Both the position numbers and the translations under genes were made by a program. A stretch of 63,918 bases of DNA, the filler included, from an uncultured bacterium (lineage in GTDB: Bacteria; CAZSTA01), in the NCBI GenBank assembly GCA_964609495.1. It is 3 parts of 3 records of this genome, joined end to end, with 100 filler letters (N's around TTAATTAATTAA, not from the genome) between each part and the next. Parts side by side here need not be neighbours in the genome. Positions count along the whole stretch, not along the records: positions 1 to 26,008 come from CAZSTA010000029.1; 2 more parts are not named here. The stretch is one strand, 5' to 3'. This document shows positions 1,982 through 23,407 of the stretch, one piece after another. Every line of letters begins with the position of its first letter. Position 1 is the first letter of the stretch. The notes under the pieces are model-generated. The model saw only the letters and a program-made list of their open reading frames with translations. It ran no database searches and was not told the origin of the DNA.

Positions 1982-3646
1982 ATGTTTTCGAGAAGGAATA
2001 TAGCGATTTTGATGTTATCCATCGCTCTTATTGGACTGACGGTAGGATGTAGTAGGGAGAAAGGGGGAGGGGTTGTTTCTCCTCCCTTTACAGCGATATC
2101 CGATATCACCAATAGCTGTGGTAAAGCTGTCTTCTCTGTCGGCAAGGGTGAGATATTAATATTGAAGTTAGTAGATGAGGGAAGTAATCCGATTCAGGGG
2201 CTCGATGTTCTCTGCCTCTCTGATGAAACTGGGGCTGAGAATGTCCTCTTAATTGTCACTGATCCCGATGATAGATACTTAACTTATATGTTCTCTCCTC
2301 AAGCGGCGGAGTTAGAGAGCTATGCGGGAGAGGTATTCTCAGGGTGTGAAAGTAGTTCAGCTCTAGAGAGTGAGAACTTTGAAAAGAGATACCTGCTGAA
2401 GAAAATGATGAGCTTCTCCTCGGTTATAGATGAGGATGAGAAAGAAGGATCTGCGTATTACGATAAAGTGGATAAGGTCAATAAATATCTCTTCGATCCT
2501 GAATATGGTTACTATGAAGCTCTTTTCTCTTCAGACCTGGAGAATCTAGACTCCAAATTGAAGGAATATTGGGACGAGTTCGAATTTGGAAATAGGACTG
2601 GATTAACCAGAGATGGATACTTAGCTCATATAGCCGTATATGATGATGGGTCTCCAGCGACGATAAAGCTCAATATATTCTCCAAGGATCAAACAAATCA
2701 AAAGGGAGATTATCTTAAGAATGGCTATGCTGTGAGTCAATTCTTCGAGGTATATCAACCTAAGATCAAGATGTGGGAGGGGATAGAGCCCTTCCCCCTC
2801 ATCAAACCTCTGAGTGGTCCTACTAATACACCTCCTACAGTGAAGATCTCCGCTCTGCCCACGGAGGGATTACTCCCTCTTGAGGTTAGCTTTAAGGCTG
2901 AGGCAGACGATCGGGATGGAACGGTCGTATCTTATGAGTGGAACTTCGCTGATGGAGAGACCAGCAACGAGCAGAATCCAACTCATATTTATCGAATCGG
3001 GGGAACGCATAAGGTAGTGTGCAAGGTTACCGATAACGATGGCGCGGAGGGCTCCGATTCAATCGAGATATCGGCATCTACTCCGCCCACGGGAGATTCG
3101 GGAAGTTATCTAGTATATAAGCTATCCTCCGCTATAAACGGAGGAACTATAGAGTTCGATGTCAAGGGATTAACCAATATGGGCTCTACTAATTCCCGAG
3201 TCTCTGGCAAGGATGTCCTATTCTGTATGACTAAGGGAATGACACTCGCAAATTATGAAGGATATCGTTGTGACATCAGGAAGTATGGCTCTAACTATAC
3301 TGGGCAAAATGCTAACACTTTGCAGACGGTCATAACCACTGGACTCTCGAAGTGGGTGGAGGAAACTTGGCTCGATAGCAAAATGATAAACTGGGATAGG
3401 GACCATACTTATCATCTCACCATTATCTTTGGTGATTTCCAGTTCAAAGCCTTTCGCTTGGATAAAGATACTGGGGAGCTCATAGAGTTCAGCGCCTCCT
3501 ATGAGGAGGCGGCTCCAAATGGATTATCGTTTACTTATATAATGTTCGGCTGGAGCCCGAAATATGGCACTCCTCCCGGCGGGACATTCTTCGATGTCAG
3601 ACTGCCCTATGGGGTTGATTACGAGCTAGTCAAGAGTGCGCCCTAA
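1982..3646 (+). CDS. Lipoprotein with PKD domain, paralog of 293..1948
   Basis: Lipobox TVGC; YEWNFADGETSNEQNPTHIY PKD motif; shared TNSCGKAVF, KYLFDP.YGYYE and GW.PKYG.PPGG motifs. Confidence 0.8.
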   Translation: MFSRRNIAILMLSIALIGLTVGCSREKGGGVVSPPFTAISDITNSCGKAVFSVGKGEILILKLVDEGSNPIQGLDVLCLSDETGAENVLLIVTDPDDRYLTYMFSPQAAELESYAGEVFSGCESSSALESENFEKRYLLKKMMSFSSVIDEDEKEGSAYYDKVDKVNKYLFDPEYGYYEALFSSDLENLDSKLKEYWDEFEFGNRTGLTRDGYLAHIAVYDDGSPATIKLNIFSKDQTNQKGDYLKNGYAVSQFFEVYQPKIKMWEGIEPFPLIKPLSGPTNTPPTVKISALPTEGLLPLEVSFKAEADDRDGTVVSYEWNFADGETSNEQNPTHIYRIGGTHKVVCKVTDNDGAEGSDSIEISASTPPTGDSGSYLVYKLSSAINGGTIEFDVKGLTNMGSTNSRVSGKDVLFCMTKGMTLANYEGYRCDIRKYGSNYTGQNANTLQTVITTGLSKWVEETWLDSKMINWDRDHTYHLTIIFGDFQFKAFRLDKDTGELIEFSASYEEAAPNGLSFTYIMFGWSPKYGTPPGGTFFDVRLPYGVDYELVKSAP

Positions 3647-8504: not shown

Positions 8505-9533
8505 ATGATAGCGATGGGCGAGGATATCGAGAATTTAGAGAGCATATCGGTAGTGATCCCCATCTTGAACGAGGAAGGAAATATCAAATCTCTCTATCCT
8601 CAATTAAAGCAGGTTTTGGATGGATTGGGGAGGGAATATGAATTAATTTTTGTGGATGATGGCAGTATCGATGGCACTTTCCCTCTGCTCAAGGAGATTG
8701 CCGCTCAGGACGATAAGGTTAAGATAATAAGATTTAGGAAGAACTTCGGTCAGACTGCAGCTATATCCGCGGGCTTCGATTATGCTACAGGGGATATTAT
8801 AATCACCTCGGATGGAGATCTCCAGAACGATCCAGAGGATATTCCTAAGTTGATAGCTAAAGTAGAAGAGGGATATGATGTGGTAAGTGGTTGGCGTAAG
8901 GACAGGAAAGAGCCATTTCTAACGAGAATTCTACCCTCTAAGATCGCCAATTCATTGATCTCCTTCTTAACCGATGTTAAATTACATGATTATGGCTGTT
9001 CCTTGAAAGCATATCGAAGGGAGGTAGTGAAGAATATAAATCTTTATGGGGAGATGCACCGTTTCATCCCTGCCCTGGCAAGCTGGATGGGTATCTCCGT
9101 GGCGGAAGTTCCAGTGAACGATCGAGCGAGAAAGTTCGGAAAATCGAAATATGGATTATCTCGAACGACCAAGGTGCTTCTAGATCTAATAACGGTTAAA
9201 TTTTTGCTGAGATATTCTACCCGACCTATTCAGATCTTTGGCTTTTTAGGGTTAATTTCAACCCTCGTTGGCTTCCTTATGGCTTTATATCTTTCCTATG
9301 GGAGATTGTTCAAGGGCCAGAGTTTAGCGAACAGACCTATTTTACTGCTAGCTGTTCTATTAATATTCATCGGTATTCAACTCATCACTATGGGATTGTT
9401 AGGAGAGATGATAGTTAGGATCTATCATGAGGCGCAAGGAAAACCAATCTATGTGGTTAGGGAGTTGATCGAAGGGAAAAAGAGAACAGGATATAAGGAT
9501 AAATATACTCAGCTCCAGCGATTTATTTCCTGA
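8505..9533 (+). CDS. GT2 glycosyltransferase, ArnC/GtrB-like with 2 C-terminal TM helices
   Basis: VDDGSID, RKNFGQTAA, DGDLQNDPEDIP, YGEMHRFIP. Confidence 0.9.
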   Translation: MIAMGEDIENLESISVVIPILNEEGNIKSLYPQLKQVLDGLGREYELIFVDDGSIDGTFPLLKEIAAQDDKVKIIRFRKNFGQTAAISAGFDYATGDIIITSDGDLQNDPEDIPKLIAKVEEGYDVVSGWRKDRKEPFLTRILPSKIANSLISFLTDVKLHDYGCSLKAYRREVVKNINLYGEMHRFIPALASWMGISVAEVPVNDRARKFGKSKYGLSRTTKVLLDLITVKFLLRYSTRPIQIFGFLGLISTLVGFLMALYLSYGRLFKGQSLANRPILLLAVLLIFIGIQLITMGLLGEMIVRIYHEAQGKPIYVVRELIEGKKRTGYKDKYTQLQRFIS

Positions 9534-9571
9534 TAGGATGATAATTATTTATCCTTCCGAAGTGGTGATTT

Positions 9572-10768
9572 ATGAGGATATTAATGCTTACTCCAGAACC
9601 ATTTTTCCAACCCAGAGGCACTCCCTTCAGCGTGTATCATCGTGCTGAGACCCTGGGAAAGTTAGGATATGAAGTCGATATATTGACCTATCCCCTTGGT
9701 AAAGACGTAAAATTAGAGAATGTCAACATCTATCGTATTCCCAAGATCCCCTTCATAAAGCACGTCAAAGTGGGGCCTTCCTTAACTAAATTACCTTTAG
9801 ATTTCCTCCTCTTTATCGAGGCTTTTGTCAAGCTCCTTTCCGGGAAATACGATTGTATTCACTCCCACGAAGAGGCGGTCTTTATCGCCTCGCTCCTGAA
9901 GATCATCTTCGGAAAACCTTCGGTCTATGATATGCACTCCAGCCTACCTCAACAGTTGGAGAACTTCGATTTCATCCGTAATAAAACGATCATCAGGATA
10001 GCTAAAGTGCTAGAGCGATGGGCCTTAAAGATATCGGACATTACTATAGTTATCTGCCCTGCTCTGCGCGATACTGTCCGCAATATCGCTCCTACAAAGC
10101 AGGTGATACTGATCGAGAATGTTGCGGGAAGCGATGATTGTGAGGTGCCCCCATCTGTTTTGAAAAAGATCCGAGAGGAATTAGGGATCGATAGCCAACC
10201 AGTGATACTGTATGCGGGAACTTTTGAGCCATATCAGGGATTAGATATTCTGATCGGAGGTATTCCCCTGGTTGTTAGAGATTATCCTCAGGTGAGATAT
10301 GTATTGGCTGGAGGCGATCCCCATCAAGTGGAGGAGATGAAGAGATTAGCCGAATCTCTCAAAGTCGGCGATAATGTCCTCTTCTTAGGGAAGAGACCCC
10401 CTGATGATATACCACCTCTCCTGGCTATGGCTGATATCTTAGTATCCCCTCGCAAGAAAGGTACCAACACTCCCCTTAAGATCTACTCCTATCTTCGTTC
10501 GGGGAAGCCTATCGTAGCGACCGATCTCTCCACTCATACTCAGGTTTTAACCAAGGAGACTGCGATACTGACCGAACCTGAGGCGAACTCTTTTGCTCAG
10601 GGGATCATAGATCTACTAAAAGACGAGGAGTTAAGAAAAACTATCGGTAGAAGAGGAAGAGAATTAGCAGAGACCGAATATAGCTATGAGATGTTTGTTA
10701 AGAAAACCGAGCTGGTATATGAATATATCGAGGGTTTAATTAGTAAAGGTTATAGAGAAAATGAATGA
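9572..10768 (+). CDS. GT4 glycosyltransferase
   Basis: GT-B motifs YAGTFEPYQG, PLKIYSYLRSGKPIVATD. Confidence 0.9.
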   Translation: MRILMLTPEPFFQPRGTPFSVYHRAETLGKLGYEVDILTYPLGKDVKLENVNIYRIPKIPFIKHVKVGPSLTKLPLDFLLFIEAFVKLLSGKYDCIHSHEEAVFIASLLKIIFGKPSVYDMHSSLPQQLENFDFIRNKTIIRIAKVLERWALKISDITIVICPALRDTVRNIAPTKQVILIENVAGSDDCEVPPSVLKKIREELGIDSQPVILYAGTFEPYQGLDILIGGIPLVVRDYPQVRYVLAGGDPHQVEEMKRLAESLKVGDNVLFLGKRPPDDIPPLLAMADILVSPRKKGTNTPLKIYSYLRSGKPIVATDLSTHTQVLTKETAILTEPEANSFAQGIIDLLKDEELRKTIGRRGRELAETEYSYEMFVKKTELVYEYIEGLISKGYRENE

Positions 10769-13460
10769 AGAGAATAGTATCGAAGAACTCTCCCAATTAG
10801 ATATAGATAGAGTTATTCGTATGAGTAGCGGTAGAGTCGAGGAAAACGTCAAGATAAAAATTATAATTCCTCTTCTGAAGATGTTAGGATATGATGTTAA
10901 GAGAGATATGGATTTCGAGCATCATGTCAGAAATGGAAGAGCGGATATAGCTTTGATATTCGAAGGTCAACCCAAGTTAATTGTGGAAACAAAGGATCTC
11001 GATGAAAATTTAGATAATCATATAGAACAAGCGCTCGATTATGCCTTTAAGAAAGGAGTGGATTGGGTATTATTAACTAACGGGATTGAAACAAGGCTAT
11101 ACAAATCTTACATATCAGGAGTTCTTCCAGAAGATAGATTGCTCTTTTCTACTAGGCTAAATGACCTTCCTCAAACTTTCTCAGAACTCTGGGATAGAAT
11201 ATCGAAGGAAAATTTACCAACTGCTGAGAGGATAACAAAAGAGGCAGAGTATATCAGAGAAAGGATAACTGCTAAAAGTTTGATAAGAGATCTAACAGAT
11301 TGTAAAGATATACTATTCCAAGATCTTTTTGAGCAGTTTAAGGACAGATATGACAAAGAGGAGGATTTTAGAGATCTGATAAATAATTGGGCTGAGAAGG
11401 TAAAGATGGATATTAAAGATCCTCAGTTTATTGATAATCTTTGCAAAGAAGGTGCTTATACCCTAATAAATAGGATATTATTCTTGAGGATTTGTGAGGA
11501 TAAAGGGTATATAAAAGCTAAATTGAGTAAGGAAAACATAGCTGATTTGAGGCGAATGGTCGAGAAACCTATCAGAATTCTAAATTTAGCTTTTGAAGAG
11601 GTCGGAGATAGATTCGAAAGATTATACAAATCTCCTCTATTTGATAACATAAACTTTGATACTATTAGATGGAACGAAAAAACTATCAATTATATCTTAG
11701 ATAAACTGGGAGAGCACGATTTCAGCAGAATTAGTAGAGATATATTAGGGATGGCTTATGAACAACACATAACTGGAGAGGAAAGGAAGCAGTTGGGACA
11801 ATTCTATACTCCTGATTTCGTAATTGACTATATCCTAGATAATACCCTGAATATAGTTCTTAATGAGAAATCGGTGGAAGATATAAAGATATTAGATCCC
11901 GCTTGTGGTTCAGGAGGTTTTTTGATAAGAGCGTATAATAGGCTTAGAGAACGATATAGAGAAGAGAGATGGGCTGAGGAGGTGATTCATGAGCAGATAT
12001 TGAAGAATAATATACATGGGATCGATATTAATCCATTCGCCACCCAATTAACGGTGATGAATTTATTGCTCAAGGATCTCGATCACCCCACTGGAGAGAT
12101 CAACATAGTTGAAGGAGATAGTTTAGATAAAAGATTTGACAATTTCTTAGACCTAGATGCTTTTAATAATGATGCTCCGATCACCAAAGTTGTGAGAGGG
12201 AATAAGAAGAGTTCTTTAGTGAAGTTACTCCAGAAGCGCCCTTTTGATATTATTATAGGTAATCCTCCTTATATCGGTAAAAGAACCTATCTCCTCCCTA
12301 GTGATAAAAAGAGATTCAAGCAACAGTATTACTGCGCTCAAGGGAGATATGAGATCTATCGCTTTTTTATCGAGCGAGGCATCGAGTTGTTAAGAGATGG
12401 CGGAATGCTAGGTTTTATTGTGCCTCATACCTGGTTGGTGCTGGAGCAAGCAGAGAAACTCAGGAACTTTGTATTAAATAATTGCAAGATAATTTCAATA
12501 GCAACTTTATCGGTTAAAGCGTTTGAGACAGTAGTGGATAATATAATTATTATATTACAGAAGGAAGCTGAAGCAAAAGCTCGAAAAACTAATAAAATAG
12601 AGATCAGAGTTCTGGGTCTCAATGGTTTAAGAAAGGATCGCAATATCTCTCAGGAAAAGTGGTGCGTTAATAAAAATCAGATTTTCGATATCTATAGTGA
12701 TGATAGGACTTCGGAATTGATTGCAAAGATAGAGCAAGGTAGTCTGAAGTTAGAGAGCATCGGTGATGTCAGAGATGGAATAATAGTTGGAAGAATTAAG
12801 GATATAGCCTTTTCTGATAAGAAACTTGATAGCGCCTATCAAAAAGTTCTATTCGGAAGAGATATTGAAAGGTATAGCAAACGTTGGGGAGGTATGTTCG
12901 TTTGTAGAGATAAGGATAGACTATTAAGGATTGAGAAAGAAAGAGTCGGAGAAAGAGAAGTTGGACTTAGGTTGAGAGAGGAAAAAATATTCAAGAGAGA
13001 GAAAATACTAACTAGAAAAACTGCTGATCGCCTAATCGCTTGTTATGATAATGAAGGGCATTATTACGATCATAGTTTGCATGGAACTTCAGTAACTTCG
13101 GATGATTTTGAGATAAAATATATCCTGGCTCTATTAAACTCTAAGCTCTTAGAGTGGTATTATAAAAGCGATCCCTTCCAGAAGAAGCGAACTTTTCCTC
13201 AAGTTAGAATCAGCAAGTTAAAGAGCTTACCCATAAGGAAGGCATCACCAGAACAGCAGAATGAAATAAAACTATTAGTAGATAAAAATTTGGTGTTGAA
13301 TGAACAGTTATGTGATCCTGCCTTTGGGGAAAAGAGAGCGGACATCCAAAAGGAGATAGAGCTTATAGATAAAAGGATAGACGAGAAAGTATTCGAGTTG
13401 TATGAGATGACTGAAGAGGAGAGAGAATTTATCAGAAGAGATTTAGCAGAGGGCGAATAG
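10761..13460 (+). CDS. Fused restriction-modification enzyme (Type IIG/IIC-like: HsdR_N-like nuclease, N6-adenine MTase, TaqI-like TRD)
   Basis: N-terminal PD-(D/E)xK-like EENVK..RADIAL..VETK..QALDYA..LTNG; GQFYTP, DPACGSGGFL (motif I) preceding NPPY (motif IV), i.e. gamma class; C-terminal LALLNSKLL TRD. Confidence 0.9.
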   Translation: MNEENSIEELSQLDIDRVIRMSSGRVEENVKIKIIIPLLKMLGYDVKRDMDFEHHVRNGRADIALIFEGQPKLIVETKDLDENLDNHIEQALDYAFKKGVDWVLLTNGIETRLYKSYISGVLPEDRLLFSTRLNDLPQTFSELWDRISKENLPTAERITKEAEYIRERITAKSLIRDLTDCKDILFQDLFEQFKDRYDKEEDFRDLINNWAEKVKMDIKDPQFIDNLCKEGAYTLINRILFLRICEDKGYIKAKLSKENIADLRRMVEKPIRILNLAFEEVGDRFERLYKSPLFDNINFDTIRWNEKTINYILDKLGEHDFSRISRDILGMAYEQHITGEERKQLGQFYTPDFVIDYILDNTLNIVLNEKSVEDIKILDPACGSGGFLIRAYNRLRERYREERWAEEVIHEQILKNNIHGIDINPFATQLTVMNLLLKDLDHPTGEINIVEGDSLDKRFDNFLDLDAFNNDAPITKVVRGNKKSSLVKLLQKRPFDIIIGNPPYIGKRTYLLPSDKKRFKQQYYCAQGRYEIYRFFIERGIELLRDGGMLGFIVPHTWLVLEQAEKLRNFVLNNCKIISIATLSVKAFETVVDNIIIILQKEAEAKARKTNKIEIRVLGLNGLRKDRNISQEKWCVNKNQIFDIYSDDRTSELIAKIEQGSLKLESIGDVRDGIIVGRIKDIAFSDKKLDSAYQKVLFGRDIERYSKRWGGMFVCRDKDRLLRIEKERVGEREVGLRLREEKIFKREKILTRKTADRLIACYDNEGHYYDHSLHGTSVTSDDFEIKYILALLNSKLLEWYYKSDPFQKKRTFPQVRISKLKSLPIRKASPEQQNEIKLLVDKNLVLNEQLCDPAFGEKRADIQKEIELIDKRIDEKVFELYEMTEEEREFIRRDLAEGE

Positions 13461-15363
13461 AAGGGGGATTATCCTTGCGAGAGCAGACGGAGTTATTAGC
13501 TACTCTATTCGATAACCTAAACTTTGATGATATTAAATGGAGCGAGGAAACTATCAACTATATCTTAGATAAGCTGGGAGGGAATGATTTCAGCAGGATT
13601 AGTAGGGATATATTAGGGATGGCTTATGAACAACATATAACTAGAGAGGAAAGGAAGCAATTAGGACAATTCTACACTCCTGATTTCGTAATTGATTATA
13701 TTCTAGATAATACCCTAGATGTAGTTCTTAATGAAAAATCGATAGAAGATATAAAGATATTAGATCCAGCCTGTGGTTCAGGAGGTTTTCTGATAAGAGC
13801 GTATAATAGGCTTAGAGAACGATATAGAGAAGAGAGATGGGCTGAGGAGGTGATTCACGAGCAGATATTAAAGAATAATCTCTATGGGATCGATATCAAT
13901 CCCTTTGCCACTCAATTAACGGTGATGAATTTATTGCTTAAGGATCTCGACCATCCCACTGAAGAGATCAATATAGTTGAAGGAGACAGTTTAGATAAAA
14001 GGTTTGACAATGCCTTAGACTTAGATACCTTTAATAATGATGCTCCGATCACCAAAGTTGTCAGAGGGAATAAGAGAGGCTCTTTAGTGAAGTTACTACA
14101 GAAACGCCCCTTTGATATTATTATAGGCAATCCTCCTTATATTGGTGGGAAGACTTATATACTCCCTAGGGAGAAAAAGAGATTCAAGCAACAGTATTAC
14201 TGTGCTCAGGGTATGTATGAGATCCATCGCTTTTTTATCGAGCGAGGTATAGAATTATTGAGAGATGGCGGAATGCTAGGTTTTATCGTGCCTCATACCT
14301 GGTTGGTGTTGGAGCAAGCAGAGAAACTTAGAAATTTTGTATTGAATAATTGCCGAATAATTTCAATAGCAACTTTATCGACTAAGGTATTCGATGCTTC
14401 AGTAGATACCATAATTGTTATATTAAAGAAGGAGGCAAATCCAGAAGAGCGGACAGCTAATGAGGTAGAGATTATAAGCTTAGAGCAAAGCGAGGTTAAG
14501 GAGGAGCGTAGAATATCTCAAAAGAATTGGCTCTCCACTAATAAGCAAGTTTTCGATATCTATAGCGATGATAGAACTTCGGAATTGGTCGCGAAAATAG
14601 AGCAAGGTAGTTTGAAGTTGGAGAGTATCGGTGATGTCAGAGATGGAATAATGGCTGGAAGAATTAAGGATATAGCTTATTCCGATAAAAAGCTGGATAG
14701 CACCTACCGAAAAGTTCTATTTGGAAGGGATATAGAAAGATATAATAAACATTGGGGAGGTATGTTCGTTTGTAGAGATAAGGATAAGCTATTAAAGATC
14801 GAGAAGGAAAGAGTTGGAGAAAGAGAAGTTGGACTTAGGCTGAGGGAAGAGGAGATATTCAAAAAAGAGAAGATTTTAACTAGAAAAACTGCTGATCATC
14901 TAATCGCTTGCTATGATAATGAGGGATACTATTACGATCAAAGTTTGCTTGGAGCTTGGGTAACTTCGGATGATTTTGAGATAAAATATATCTTGGCTCT
15001 ATTTAATTCCAAACTCTTCGAGTGGTATTATAAAAGCGATCCCTTTCAAAAGAAACGAACTTTCCCTCAAATTAGAAATAGCAAGTTAAAGAGCTTACCC
15101 ATAAAGAAGGCATCACCAGAGAAGCAGAATGAGATAAAACTATTAGTAGATAAAATTTTAGTATTGAACGAACAATTATACGATCCTACTTCTGAGGAGA
15201 AGAAAGCGGATATCCGAAATGAGATAAAGCTTATAGATAGAGAGATAGATGAGAAAATATTCGAGTTGTATGGGGTGATTGAAGAGGAGAGGGGATTTAT
15301 CAGAAGAGATTTAGCAGAGGGCGAATAGAAGGGGGATTATCCTTGCGAGAGCAGACGGAGTTA
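11635..15363 (+). repeat. 1868-bp imperfect tandem duplication (about 11635-13495 and 13503-15363), including a 69-bp identical segment (13427-13495 = 15295-15363)
   Basis: Homologous landmarks offset by exactly 1868 nt at both ends (ctctatt at 11635/13503; stop TAG at 13460/15328). Confidence 0.95.
13475..15328 (+). CDS. Nuclease-less paralog (N6-adenine MTase + TRD) of the upstream RM enzyme, formed by tandem duplication
   Basis: Colinear with the C-terminal ~610 aa of 10761..13460; intact GQFYTP, DPACGSG and NPPY; N-terminal MREQTEL identical to the acetyltransferase start. Confidence 0.85.
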   Translation: MREQTELLATLFDNLNFDDIKWSEETINYILDKLGGNDFSRISRDILGMAYEQHITREERKQLGQFYTPDFVIDYILDNTLDVVLNEKSIEDIKILDPACGSGGFLIRAYNRLRERYREERWAEEVIHEQILKNNLYGIDINPFATQLTVMNLLLKDLDHPTEEINIVEGDSLDKRFDNALDLDTFNNDAPITKVVRGNKRGSLVKLLQKRPFDIIIGNPPYIGGKTYILPREKKRFKQQYYCAQGMYEIHRFFIERGIELLRDGGMLGFIVPHTWLVLEQAEKLRNFVLNNCRIISIATLSTKVFDASVDTIIVILKKEANPEERTANEVEIISLEQSEVKEERRISQKNWLSTNKQVFDIYSDDRTSELVAKIEQGSLKLESIGDVRDGIMAGRIKDIAYSDKKLDSTYRKVLFGRDIERYNKHWGGMFVCRDKDKLLKIEKERVGEREVGLRLREEEIFKKEKILTRKTADHLIACYDNEGYYYDQSLLGAWVTSDDFEIKYILALFNSKLFEWYYKSDPFQKKRTFPQIRNSKLKSLPIKKASPEKQNEIKLLVDKILVLNEQLYDPTSEEKKADIRNEIKLIDREIDEKIFELYGVIEEERGFIRRDLAEGE

Positions 15364-16107
15364 CAAACTCATTTGCTAGATAGGAAGAAATCGAATTTAG
15401 CTAAATATCAGGATATGGTGATAGGTAAACCTGGTCTGGCAGACTTACTCAAATATGAGCTGATGACTTTCCTTCTAGCTCCTATGCCCGGGGCTTTGGG
15501 ATTGTGGTTGAGGGGGAAATTATATCCGCATCTGTTGGGAAAGATAGGGCGAAATATCATTATGGGAAGGAACATCACTTTAAGACACCCTCATAAGATC
15601 AGATTGGGAAGTAATATAATCATTGATGACAATTGTGTCCTGGATGCTAAGGGAGAGGAGAACGAAGGGATAACCATAGGTGATAATGTATCTATAAGCA
15701 GAAATACGATTCTTGCCTGTAAAAATGGGACTATCGAGATTGGGGAGGGCTGTCTTATTGGGATTAACTGTATGATCCATTCGGAGAAGATGGTCAAATT
15801 GGGGAAGTATGTCCTGATCGCCGCTTATTGTTATATAATCGGGGGAGGAGATCATAATTATGATCGAACTGATATCCCGATTATGGCTCAAGGAACCGTT
15901 TCAAAGGGGATCGTTATAGAGGATGATGTTTGGCTTGGCGCAGGAGTGAAGATATCGGACGGAGTTACTATAGGGACTGGAAGCATCATCGGAACTTCTG
16001 CGGTGGTCCTTAAGGATATACCGCCCTATAGCATAGCCTATGGAGTGCCGGCTAAGGTTATAAAGAGTAGAAAGCCCAGAGAAGATGAGTTCGTGGAGCA
16101 AAGTTAG
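15343..16107 (+). CDS. Hexapeptide-repeat (LbH) sugar acyltransferase
   Basis: IxIGxx hexapeptide repeats, IEDDVWLGAG, GVPAKVIK; TTG start after GAAGGGGG. Confidence 0.9.
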   Translation: MREQTELQTHLLDRKKSNLAKYQDMVIGKPGLADLLKYELMTFLLAPMPGALGLWLRGKLYPHLLGKIGRNIIMGRNITLRHPHKIRLGSNIIIDDNCVLDAKGEENEGITIGDNVSISRNTILACKNGTIEIGEGCLIGINCMIHSEKMVKLGKYVLIAAYCYIIGGGDHNYDRTDIPIMAQGTVSKGIVIEDDVWLGAGVKISDGVTIGTGSIIGTSAVVLKDIPPYSIAYGVPAKVIKSRKPREDEFVEQS

Positions 16108-16143
16108 CTCCTCAATCCTCATTCATCATATTCTTAAATACAC

Positions 16144-16172
16144 TTGTCTATTAGCTATAAATATGTTAAAAT
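16144..16172 (+). promoter_or_regulatory. sigma70/sigmaA-type promoter
   Basis: TTGTCT-17-TAAAAT with TG extension, upstream of 16235. Confidence 0.55.
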
Positions 16173-16234
16173 ATAATTGGTGATAAAAATAGAGAGGCTA
16201 GAAGAAATTCTATCCTCTAGTCAGGATAGTTGTT

Positions 16235-17059
16235 ATGGAAGTATATGCTCTAATTGGGGAGACGGGAACTGGAAAGAGCCACAACGCTCTAACAGTAGCC
16301 AATAAATACAATATCGATGCTATAATAGATGATGGGCTATTGATTCGCGATAGCCTTATCCTAGCAGGTTATTCGGCTAAAAGAGAATCCAATAAGATTC
16401 AAGCCATTAAGAGAGCTCTCTTCCTCGAACGATCTCATTGTGAAGAGGTCAAAAACGCCATCAAAGAGTTTAACCTCTCCAAGATTCTCATCTTAGGAAC
16501 CTCCAGGAAGATGATAGATAAGATCGTGGATGTTCTGGAGTTACCTGTCCCTTCCACCTTTATTGATATAGAAGATGTATCCTCTAAGGGTCAGATCGAA
16601 GAGGCAAGGAGAGTAAGGCTCTCAGATGGAATACATGCTGTCCCTGTTCCTAGGATCCAGGTTAAGAAAAAAATCCCTTTCTTTCTGTTGGATTCCTTGT
16701 ATAGCTTTTACAGGAAGAATCCAACCTCAAAACGACGGACGAGGTCGGAGAAATCGATTGTTCGACCTCCCTTCAGTTATCTAGGTAAATTGGTGATCTC
16801 TGATGATGCAGTTATCACTATAGTTAAGAAGTGCCTTGAGAGCCATCCTAATCTAGCGAATCTAGAGCAGGCAAAAGTGGAGCTTAAGAATGACGGATTA
16901 GTGATAAATCTCTCTATAATAGTGGATTATGGCATCAATGCTACCAGGGTCGCCCAGAGGATTCAGTATAAGGTTATAGATGAGGTTGAGCATCTAACTG
17001 GTTTAAATGTTATAAGGGTAAACGTTACCGTTCGAGGATTTGGCTCCCCTAATAGTTAA
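16235..17059 (+). CDS. P-loop NTPase fused to Asp23/Gls24 domain
   Basis: GETGTGKS, IIDDGLLI; C-terminal VEHLTGLNVIRVNVTV Asp23 signature. Confidence 0.8.
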   Translation: MEVYALIGETGTGKSHNALTVANKYNIDAIIDDGLLIRDSLILAGYSAKRESNKIQAIKRALFLERSHCEEVKNAIKEFNLSKILILGTSRKMIDKIVDVLELPVPSTFIDIEDVSSKGQIEEARRVRLSDGIHAVPVPRIQVKKKIPFFLLDSLYSFYRKNPTSKRRTRSEKSIVRPPFSYLGKLVISDDAVITIVKKCLESHPNLANLEQAKVELKNDGLVINLSIIVDYGINATRVAQRIQYKVIDEVEHLTGLNVIRVNVTVRGFGSPNS

Positions 17060-17098
17060 AGGGGAGATCGTCGCTTCTTCAGAGTAATACGAATTTCC

Positions 17099-17593
17099 TT
17101 GGTTATGAAGGAGAAGATAGCTATGGAAACTACCTTTGTTATGATCAAACCAGATGGAGTGCAGAGGAACTTAGTTGGAGAGATCATCTCTCGCTTCGAG
17201 AAAAAGGGTTTGAAGATAGTCGGGCTAAAGATGTTGATGCTCTCAAGGGAGATGGCAGAGGAACTCTACGATGAACATCGGGATAAATATTTCTTCAAAT
17301 ATTTAATCGAATTTGTAACCTCAGGGCCAGTCGTCGTTTTAGCTCTCTGGGGAAAAGGGGCAATCGGTATGGTTAGAGCTATGATGGGAGCTTTGGAACC
17401 TCTGGAAGCCGCTCCTGGAACTATAAGGGGAGATTACTCCCTTGATATAAGATATAATCTTATTCATGGCTCCGGCACCGAGGAAGAAGCGTTAAGAGAG
17501 CTAGCTATTCTCTTTCCCGAGGGATTGATTACTTATGATAAAAGTGAAACCGAATGGCTGAATTTGAAAGGTGAGGAGGTGAGTTTAGAATGA
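17099..17593 (+). CDS. ndk: Nucleoside diphosphate kinase (start possibly 17105 or 17123)
   Basis: TFVMIKPDGVQR, PGTIRGD, NLIHGS. Confidence 0.95.
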   Translation: MVMKEKIAMETTFVMIKPDGVQRNLVGEIISRFEKKGLKIVGLKMLMLSREMAEELYDEHRDKYFFKYLIEFVTSGPVVVLALWGKGAIGMVRAMMGALEPLEAAPGTIRGDYSLDIRYNLIHGSGTEEEALRELAILFPEGLITYDKSETEWLNLKGEEVSLE

Positions 17594-22450: not shown

Positions 22451-23407
22451 ATGATGAATGAAATAATAAATAAAATTGTGTGGGGAGATGCTAGGGATGT
22501 GCTAGATAGAATTGAAGATAATACCATAGATCTTGTATTGACAGATCCCCCCTACTTTTTAGATAAAATGGATAATAACTGGAATCACGAAACTGTCTCG
22601 AGCACAAAGTATCAACACACCGTTAAGTCTCTCCCCGCGGGAATGAAATTTGATAGAGAACAAGGAAAGCGATTTTACACCTGGTATTTAGAAATATCAA
22701 GAAAACTCCACCGAGTAATAAAGCCTGGGGGGTTCTTCTTCTCATTTTCGAGTCCAAGATTATATCATAGAATGGCTTGTGCGATAGATGATGCTGGTTT
22801 TTTGATACGAGATTGCTTTATCTGGCTTTATACCCAAAATCAAGTAAAGGCGATGAGCCTGGATCACTTTATTGACAGATTGGATACTGATGAAAAAACC
22901 AAAACTAAATTGAAGGAGAGATTGAATGGTTGGAAAACTCCCCAGATAAAATCGTGCTTTGAACCAATCGTAATGGCTCAAAAACAATATGAGAAAACAT
23001 TTCTAAGGAACATATTAAAGAACAATGTTGGTCTCTTTAATACAACAGTTCGGATAGGCGAGAATATGTTTCCCTCAAATGTCCTAACGATAGAAGGAAT
23101 TGATGAAGTTATAGACAAATATTTTCTTCTGCCAAAACCGACAAAGGAGGAAAAAGGGGAATACAACACCCATAGAGCGGTAAAACCATTGGCAATATGT
23201 GAATATATAATTCAACTATCAACCTTTTCCGATGATGCTATTGTCTTAGATCCGTTTGTAGGAAGTGGAACAACCGCGGTCGCCGCAAAGAGATTGGGGA
23301 GAAGATTTATCGGGATTGACATTAATCGTGAGTATGTGGATATCGCCTTGAAAAGATTAGAAGATGTAAGAATTGAAAGGAAATATAAGAATAAAAACAT
23401 ATCTTGA
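22451..23407 (+). CDS. Orphan beta-class N4/N6 DNA methyltransferase
   Basis: TDPPY near N-terminus; H..VKP and LDPFVGSGTT near C-terminus; AT-richer than neighbours. Confidence 0.9.
   Translation: MMNEIINKIVWGDARDVLDRIEDNTIDLVLTDPPYFLDKMDNNWNHETVSSTKYQHTVKSLPAGMKFDREQGKRFYTWYLEISRKLHRVIKPGGFFFSFSSPRLYHRMACAIDDAGFLIRDCFIWLYTQNQVKAMSLDHFIDRLDTDEKTKTKLKERLNGWKTPQIKSCFEPIVMAQKQYEKTFLRNILKNNVGLFNTTVRIGENMFPSNVLTIEGIDEVIDKYFLLPKPTKEEKGEYNTHRAVKPLAICEYIIQLSTFSDDAIVLDPFVGSGTTAVAAKRLGRRFIGIDINREYVDIALKRLEDVRIERKYKNKNIS

Follow-up and report, generated by a model that had tools for sequence, protein, structure and literature searches.

A Type IIG restriction-modification (RM) gene of an uncultured bacterium (GTDB lineage Bacteria; CAZSTA01; GenBank assembly GCA_964609495.1) is followed by a partial copy of itself, which lacks the nuclease part and begins with the start region of the next gene downstream. 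These genes lie in the window examined here, a stretch of 63,918 nucleotides (nt), of which positions 1-26008 are a single 26-kb contig (C29) of a metagenome-assembled genome (MAG) and the remainder other contigs joined by Ns; the MAG comprises 349 contigs and is 99.45% complete with 4.26% contamination. We call the fused enzyme open reading frame 1 (ORF1), its copy ORF2 and the downstream gene ORF3 (Table 1). With slightly better than even confidence, ORF2 is predicted to be an active, co-expressed, modification-only partner of the RM enzyme.

ORF1 and ORF2 are related by an ungapped direct repeat with an offset of 1,868 bp, which covers the methyltransferase (MTase) and target-recognition part of ORF1 and in which 262 of 1864 nt are mismatched (85.9% identity). 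A first-pass annotation of this stretch had described a 1868-bp tandem duplication of the MTase and target recognition domain (TRD), and the repeat bears this out. The encoded proteins share 506 of 609 residues without gaps (83%), and ORF2 starts 14 nt past the ORF1 stop on the same strand. Moreover, the 36 nt behind the ORF1 stop recur exactly behind the ORF2 stop. They comprise a AAGGGGGA site, a 6-nt spacer, the TTG and six and two-thirds codons, and their second occurrence is the beginning of ORF3. The ORF3 N-terminus (REQTELQ...) lies within a motif (QTELQ) conserved among homologues, and therefore the first codons of ORF2 derive from ORF3. Of the aligned ORF3 homologues, 40/40 have at least 24 residues upstream of Met25; TTG 15343 is therefore the real start of ORF3 and the sequence is native to that gene. 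ORF2 is therefore chimeric: the initiation region and seven codons of ORF3 are fused in frame, via a 4-nt junction, to ORF1, as expected when the two breakpoints of a tandem duplication fall in adjacent genes, one in each. The borrowed start had been omitted from the first-pass annotation.

Table 1. Features of the ORF1-ORF2-ORF3 locus (positions along the window; aa, amino acids)
Feature	Position	Strand	Remarks
ORF1, 899 aa, single-chain Type IIG RM enzyme (nuclease + helical connector + gamma-class N6-adenine MTase + TRD)	10761..13460	+	open frame, Pfam, PADLOC
ORF1 nuclease domain, aa 27-115, D62...E76-x-K78	10839..11105	+	HSDR_N_2 and HSDR_N above Pfam cut-offs
ORF1 MTase domain, aa 325-632, motif I ILDPACGSGGF, motif IV NPPY	11733..12656	+	N6_Mtase 8.1e-32, Eco57I 1.6e-33
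ORF1 TRD, TaqI_C, aa 695-825	12843..13235	+	TaqI_C 3.2e-23
ORF2, 617 aa, TTG start, chimeric stand-alone MTase+TRD	13475..15328	+	codons 1-7 from ORF3, remainder from ORF1 codon ~292 onward
ORF2 initiation region: GGGGGA Shine-Dalgarno-like site, 6-nt spacer, TTG	13463..13477	+	identical copy at ORF3, 15331-15345
ORF3, hexapeptide-repeat (WcaF-like) acetyltransferase, donor of the ORF2 start	15343..16107	+	domain matches, homologue N-termini
Repeat copy 1	11632..13495	+	
Repeat copy 2	13500..15363	+	
Novel junction TTAG	13496..13499	+	unlike the sequence before copy 1 and unlike the ORF3 continuation
Hyper-divergent segment, aa 584-645, motif VIII loop + beta-hairpin; 35/62 residues differ	12510..12695	+	counterpart 14378-14563
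67-nt identical tract, ORF1 aa 388-410, upstream of all divergent recognition patches	11923..11989	+	= 13791-13857; P=0.006, codon-position-preserving shuffle
69-nt identical tract: MTase ORF end, stop, spacer, start, 7 codons	13427..13495	+	= 15295-15363; P=0.006, uniform shuffle
Upstream GT4-type glycosyltransferase gene	9572..10768	+	Glycos_transf_1 2.1e-27, Glyco_transf_4

The junction and both copies were sought in independent data. Fifteen public runs hold part of the stretch, and we compared the per-run contigs of four of them (X1-X4). Possibly X1 is the source sample and the 2019 runs belong to a single campaign. Run X3 yielded a 275-nt contig (record 22, 13391-13665) that bridges the junction with 0 differences, so that positions 13495-13503, for which the first-pass annotation had asked for spanning reads, are covered, and record 30 of run X4 bridges ORF2 and ORF3 (15295-15520). 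Run X2, of another year and study code, yielded copy-1-specific contigs (11723-11929 and 11970-12214) as well as copy-2-specific ones (13735-14035 and 14070-14545), all with 0 differences, and the depth in run X1 is alike for both copies (5.2 vs 5.43). At a depth of 2-4x the uncovered parts in X2-X4 are uninformative. No similarity was found between the sequence upstream of 11632 and that before the junction, and a word-graph mis-join is therefore without basis; independent per-run assembly reproduces the junction, which is thus not a mis-join. The 36-nt stretch at 13460-13495 had 0 matches in the metagenome scan.

ORF1 carries in one chain the PD-(D/E)xK-type nuclease, gamma-class MTase and TRD by which Type IIG enzymes are recognised, and PADLOC ranks REase_MTase_IIG first for it (4.4e-54). 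Type IIG enzymes are characterised further by S-adenosylmethionine-dependent cutting at a fixed distance from an asymmetric site. Its nuclease domain scores 31.3 bits against HSDR_N (cut-off 25.1) and 28.8 bits against HSDR_N_2 (cut-off 25), and the columns of D62, E76 and K78 are nearly invariant across the family. We rejected an identity as BREX PglX or MADS MAD2, the match to BREX_1 reaching 167 bits vs a cut-off of 500 and that to MAD2 102 vs 720; all NCBIfam hits for the pair, to BREX and MADS models, are far under their cut-offs. ORF2 matches N6_Mtase, Eco57I and TaqI_C, lacks the HSDR_N nuclease domain and the helical connector, and is assigned to MTase_II at first rank by PADLOC. The earlier description of both copies as intact ORFs with catalytic motifs therefore stands, with frames of 899 and 617 aa and all three of these domains in each. 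An AlphaFold2 model of ORF2 (predicted local distance difference test, pLDDT, 88; predicted template modelling score, pTM, 0.85) searched with Foldseek is a complete MTase+TRD fold with no other domains, which matches CamA (template modelling (TM) score 0.68/0.75) and M.BseCI (TM 0.66/0.72) over ~600-630 columns. The family profile likewise aligns with CamA through both domains (E=2e-63).

Both copies have been maintained since the duplication. Over 608 codons the Nei-Gojobori method gives 145 synonymous and 117 non-synonymous differences, with a synonymous divergence (dS) of 0.56, a non-synonymous divergence (dN) of 0.085 and a ratio (omega) of 0.15. The comparison of dN/dS that the first-pass annotation had proposed thus finds both copies constrained, whereas its statement that the scaffold is near-identical fails at the DNA level: 154 of the 262 nucleotide differences fall at third codon positions. 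With P0006 as outgroup, the ORF1 lineage has 21 changes of its own and the ORF2 lineage 30 (chi-square 1.6, not significant), and three other outgroups give the same symmetry. Among columns conserved in at least 90% of 109 other family members both copies keep 71/71, and among those conserved in at least 80% they keep 114 vs 115 of 118; the 20 invariant catalytic and S-adenosylmethionine (SAM)-binding columns of the family, including NPPY, are retained in ORF2. Both copies are under purifying selection at similar rates, neither decaying and neither racing ahead. The next-nearest proteins among 940 hits are ~890-aa fused enzymes of 57% identity, and the copies, at 83% to each other, are therefore sisters. 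Judged from these sequences, the duplication is old.

The 102 amino-acid differences are unevenly distributed (chi-square 72.7 across four regions). Besides the hyper-divergent segment, 17 of 69 residues differ in the C-terminal helical region, 27 of 292 in the MTase core and 23 of 185 in the TRD. The first-pass annotation had quoted six patches, which are all as written and hold 21 of the 102 differences, and had held that substitutions cluster. Clustering is confirmed, but the densest cluster (aa 584-645) was not on its list and the main cluster lies outside TaqI_C. Similarly, of the converse possibility it had raised, that differences would be even and mainly synonymous, evenness fails while synonymous changes do form the majority. 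Divergence at third positions varies along the pair as well (chi-square 40.3, df 15, P=4e-4), peaking in the hyper-divergent segment (22/38 codons) and lowest at the 3′ end. In that segment dS is saturated (1.8 to undefined), as against a value near 0.5 in the remainder of the pair; two explanations would fit, a fast rate of evolution and the import of a patch from a more distant allele.

To place these differences relative to DNA, the base-contact residues of CamA (PMC8187626) were transferred to ORF1 and ORF2 through profile coordinates, by alignment only. Fourteen of 15 could be placed, R425 falling in a CamA insertion. At 10/14 contact-equivalent positions the copies are identical; differences occur at 4/14, vs 46/463 other core and TRD positions (Fisher one-sided P=0.049), and at 8/46 positions within ±2 residues of contacts (P=0.09). 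In Escherichia coli BrxX, Gln784 is a base-reading residue, and the sixth base pair is read by the loop 587-601, which surrounds Phe592 of motif VIII (bioRxiv 10.1101/2024.04.12.589305). Phe592 falls on F588/F306, at the head of the VKAFETVVDN/TKVFDASVDT patch, and Gln784 aligns weakly to the H771/Q489 column; the alignment to the BrxX TRD is weak (domain i-Evalue 1.7e3), and its reach to BrxX residue 598 (N594/T312) assumes no indel. A TRD-only sequence search of solved structures returned a spurious match only (E=0.023) and was abandoned in favour of the family profile. The earlier proposal that the patches sit in DNA-contact loops holds for 4/6 of them, which lie on or beside base-contact residues (NPPYIG-K/G, GI-I/M-V/A-G, D-H/Q-SL.. 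and PQ-V/I-R-I/N-S), and a fifth is the motif VIII loop, the counterpart of which reads the sixth base pair in BrxX; however, the contacts themselves differ at so few positions that the description of the recognition region as re-tuned is carried by a marginal P value, with most contacts the same. Polarity against outgroups P0006 and P0007 is mixed, ORF2 being derived at IG-G, G-M-YE, LLGAW and PQIRNS and ORF1 at AFET, GIIVG and H771. The recognition surfaces thus appear mostly the same, and either a shift in specificity of one or two base pairs or identical sites is possible; retuning of ORF2 specificity is plausible.

We propose that an old 1,868-bp partial tandem duplication, reaching from about codon 291 of ORF1 to codon 7 of ORF3, created a chimeric gene in which the ribosome-binding site, TTG and first seven codons of ORF3 were joined in frame to the MTase and target-recognition two-thirds of the RM gene. 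The product would be a gamma-class N6-adenine DNA methyltransferase, complete and able to stand alone. Its gene would be transcribed together with ORF1, with translation beginning at the borrowed TTG. The enzyme would methylate the site of ORF1 or one closely related to it, such as a relaxed form or the other strand, and would add nuclease-free protection, reaching the gene order of Eco57I-type systems by an independent and much younger route, while the short identical tracts suggest that the copies may still exchange sequence occasionally. Of the two readings offered by the first-pass annotation, it is the companion MTase that fits best, because purifying selection acts on the two copies about equally and ORF2 has a putative start of its own. 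The partner reading is further favoured by the 10/14 contact-equivalents that the copies have in common, by the recurrence of the RM-then-M gene order in 6/90 related loci and by P0097, a nuclease-less family member that lives alone (see below). Whether a nuclease-free partner is of benefit to a fused enzyme could be learned from such a pair.

Several points weigh against this partnership. The two genes are probably co-transcribed, as judged only from their 14-nt spacing, and the expression, catalysis and protective role of ORF2, like the relation of the two specificities, are predicted. In the model, residues 1-19 of ORF2 have a pLDDT <50 and residues 21-60 average 62-70, and loss of the connector could impair folding. 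The contact-equivalent differences (ORF1/ORF2) are K507/G225 at CamA His171, R508/K226 at Lys172, I675/M393 at Ile349 and H771/Q489 at Ala473, and 6/10 residues of the motif VIII loop differ; ORF2 may therefore read a different site, uncoupled from ORF1. Moreover, where related loci were compared, as the first-pass annotation had suggested, a second copy was present in 0/7 loci with a near-full-length relative, 5/7 of which extend at least 3.8 kb downstream. The ORF1 family thus seems normally to work alone, and the duplication appears specific to the source lineage, as far as databases show. The 60 other genomes of the species set, all of them related at the level 'same domain', include no close relative of the source genome, and 3/60 had distant matches only (E<=1e-30, 28-32% identity).

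It is unlikely, though worth serious attention, that ORF2 has gone further and become an orphan-type MTase, drifted to a distinct site and unrelated to ORF1 restriction, with a role in gene regulation or in protection against other nucleases. The differing contact-equivalents are what such drift would leave, in particular the K to G change at the CamA His171 position, by which a basic side chain is lost, and the H/Q difference in the column of CamA Ala473 and BrxX Gln784, and so are the ORF2-specific changes LHGTSV to LLGAWV and PQVRIS to PQIRNS, at which both outgroups side with ORF1. The best structural match of ORF2, CamA, is described as an orphan methyltransferase (PMC8187626). Furthermore, one member of the ORF1 family looks like a true orphan derived from this Type IIG family: P0097 (L103:5977-7800), a nuclease-less protein of 599 aa with 36% identity, stands alone between the housekeeping genes purL-like and fusA in an unrelated MAG, showing that the MTase-TRD module can live as an orphan. 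However, 10/14 contact-equivalents are unchanged and the enrichment of differences at such positions is marginal, ORF1 is derived too (VFDA to AFET, Q to H771), so that divergence is not one-sided, and linkage has stayed tight and the initiation region is still a shared one.

Exchange between the copies bears on a second alternative. The 67- and 69-nt tracts (Table 1) hint at short gene conversions; the 69-nt tract takes in non-coding bases, and may instead reflect constraint on the initiation region. One contig of run X4 (record 27; 230 nt, 13709-13938, depth 2.57) departs from copy 2 at 9 sites. The five that are listed (13742-13790) all carry copy-1 letters, and we infer that the other 4 are the remaining copy-1/copy-2 sites at 13717-13735, near the contig end. 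Of the 18 copy-distinguishing sites in the span, half lie to either side of the 67-nt tract, and the nine to its right (13858-13912) all carry copy-2 letters. Read from left to right, the contig thus changes from copy 1 to copy 2 inside the 67-nt tract. That tract is longer than the 31-letter word of the contig assembler, and at ~2.6x the contig may be a recombinant haplotype or equally a word-graph artefact; we regard it as a lead and not as evidence. No joints were found in the contigs of 4/4 runs. In run X2 (2025) variant 14852 G>A turns copy 2 into the copy-1 letter, and a second variant, at 15154, does not.

The other reading of the first-pass annotation, a specificity donor, would make ORF2 a reservoir that stores or explores an alternative recognition module, to be grafted onto the nuclease by crossover or conversion at the identical tracts; we consider it distinctly improbable. 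In its favour, the two tracts bracket the whole variable recognition part and are longer than in shuffles (P=0.006 each), third-position divergence is heterogeneous, and the X4 contig is shaped as expected of a hybrid gene with the ORF2 recognition module. The contig can be an artefact, however, for the reasons just given, so that of the recombinants and deletions that had been predicted at the repeats, one hybrid contig is the sole candidate and contigs cannot prove it recombinant. Frequent conversion is made less likely by a dS of 0.56 along most of the pair, and a crossover deletes one copy irreversibly. Moreover, ORF2 is a complete gene of expressed type and not a silent cassette. Inverted repeats of at least 30 nt were absent from 9000-17000 (0 pairs), no simple-sequence phase-variation tracts were found, and there is no recombinase gene among the neighbours. 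A shufflon, inverton or cassette switch was rejected for lack of inverted repeats and recombinase, and because ORF2 is a full ORF with a start rather than a promoter-less cassette. One could also imagine a recombinase-free switch, to which we give only a slim chance, in which ORF2 evolves an altered module and pre-methylates the genome before conversion or crossover at the anchor tracts moves the module to the nuclease without self-restriction; the X4 contig could be such a recombinant.

We think it very unlikely that ORF2 is a functionless passenger, or a nuclease-less competitor or modulator that occupies ORF1 sites without methylating them. This reading draws on the predicted status of ORF2 expression and activity, on the disorder of its N-terminal 19 residues in the model and on the normally solitary habit of the family; against it, neutral evolution of one copy cannot be squared with an omega of 0.15 at a dS of 0.56, the frame of 617 codons is uninterrupted, all 71/71 conserved columns including the SAM-binding ones and NPPY are kept, and there is no rate asymmetry. 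That two strain alleles were joined head to tail in the MAG is scarcely credible: the 349 contigs, the 4.3% contamination and a 14% copy difference within the range of strain or species alleles would allow it, but the X3 contig reproduces the junction, the X1 depths are alike, both copies occur in a run of another year, no word is shared at the junction, and the fusion preserves the reading frame and takes over an entire initiation region.

The pair is embedded in tightly packed, co-oriented glycan-synthesis genes, namely glycosyltransferase family 2 (GT2), PMT_2-like, epimerase, GT2 and GT4 genes, then the acetyltransferase, and the neighbours as a whole are glycan-synthesis and housekeeping genes. 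The 3′ end of the GT4 gene and the ORF1 ATG share 8 nt. The G+C content of the pair is 0.35-0.38 vs 0.40-0.45 in the flanks, and the pair seems to be an old insertion that is now part of an operon. A promoter and terminator scan of 9000-17500 found nothing above expectation (20 and 5 sites vs 22.0 and 5.5 in shuffles). Elsewhere on the contig, a patch of low G+C (0.37-0.38) 7 kb downstream contains a further DNA methyltransferase gene (22451-23407; N6_N4_Mtase 1.8e-37), next to which no nuclease gene was recognised. A further tandem pair is probably formed by two adjoining genes of similar size (293-1948 and 1982-3646; 551 and 554 aa), whose single PKD domains occupy corresponding positions. 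The genome itself holds at least 8 more long open frames (608-1076 aa) with an MTase core at 24-42% identity (C11:14069-15802, C18:29589-30794, C51:11922-12305, and on C263, C119, C325, C95 and C92), an unusually large number of Type IIG-like genes.

Lastly, we compared the pair with known systems. In Eco57I-type systems, as here, an RM gene with an Eco57I/N6_Mtase core is followed by an abutting, co-oriented and shorter gamma-class MTase gene. M.Eco57I itself methylates both strands of its asymmetric site. A family-profile scan gave 80 loci; together with earlier loci 94 were screened, of which 90 have an MTase-core match. Two separate MTase cores occur in 8/90, and in 6/90 (L046, L059, L065, L072, L074 and L076, from Bacteroidales, Lachnospiraceae, Gallionella and other MAGs) an RM gene is abutted by an MTase gene (~1000 aa + ~540 aa; RM 839-1042 aa, five of them 993-1042, and MTase 536-549 aa). 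Partners in these loci are only 24-31% identical over 98-242 aa, whereas ORF2 is 83% identical to ORF1 over the whole MTase+TRD and arose from a traceable partial duplication. Moreover, Eco57I-type companions carry M_Eco57I_C (PF22837; 1.8e-35 and 1.3e-37 in the small proteins of L072 and L046, the two pairs tested) and not TaqI_C, whereas ORF2 has TaqI_C and no match to M_Eco57I_C. ORF2 is therefore not a member of the Eco57I type, its recognition domain being of a different kind, and by analogy ORF1 and ORF2 may work like an Eco57I-type pair without being one. According to the review PMC4081073, Eco57I is accompanied by one MTase, and the separate MTases that go with Type IIC/IIG enzymes number zero, one or two.

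MmeI, by the same account, functions without a separate MTase, and its specificity changes hit restriction and modification together through amino-acid-pair switches (PMC4081073). Like MmeI, ORF1 and almost all of its relatives (~880 aa; HSDR_N + MTase + TaqI_C) are single-chain enzymes that lack a homologous companion; the present locus differs in adding a separately encoded MTase+TRD paralogue, and the sequence similarity of MmeI to ORF1 is confined to the MTase core (E=2.2e-5). The stand-alone gamma-class MTases share with ORF2 the two-domain MTase+TRD plan and size (~560-620 aa), and its model matches CamA-DNA and M.BseCI-DNA full length (TM 0.63-0.75) as well as M.TaqI. However, identity to these is 16-20%, and ORF2 adjoins and derives from an RM gene. 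As with the Type I hsdS invertons, extra recognition modules beside an RM gene could recombine here. Phase-variable systems have inverted repeats, an invertase or simple-sequence tracts, and a Campylobacter Type IIG gene is reportedly phase-variable under the control of a simple repeat, whereas the present locus is without these and its extra copy is complete and in direct orientation.

A limited literature search, which is weak evidence of absence, found no Type IIG partial duplication giving a nuclease-less paralogue, and the accessible part of a Bacteroides methyltransferase paper uses 'tandem duplication' only for assembler artefacts. The closest precedent is a model. Bower et al. 2018, in the accessible text, derive separate restriction and modification (R and M) genes from duplication of a Type IIG gene, with loss of the nuclease and retention of the TRD in the MTase copy (PMC6158711). 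ORF2 is such a nuclease-less, TRD-retaining copy. That model is theoretical, however, and here ORF1 keeps its MTase domain, so that there is no R-only gene, and the nuclease was lost in the duplication event itself. The locus is a natural case of the proposed step from fused to separate R and M genes, in which breakpoints, borrowed start codon and parent gene are still visible and both copies are under selection. Moreover, as a matched pair of 83% identity with few differences at base-contact-equivalent positions, ORF1 and ORF2 offer a compact test of specificity residues in a large and uncharacterised Type IIG family.

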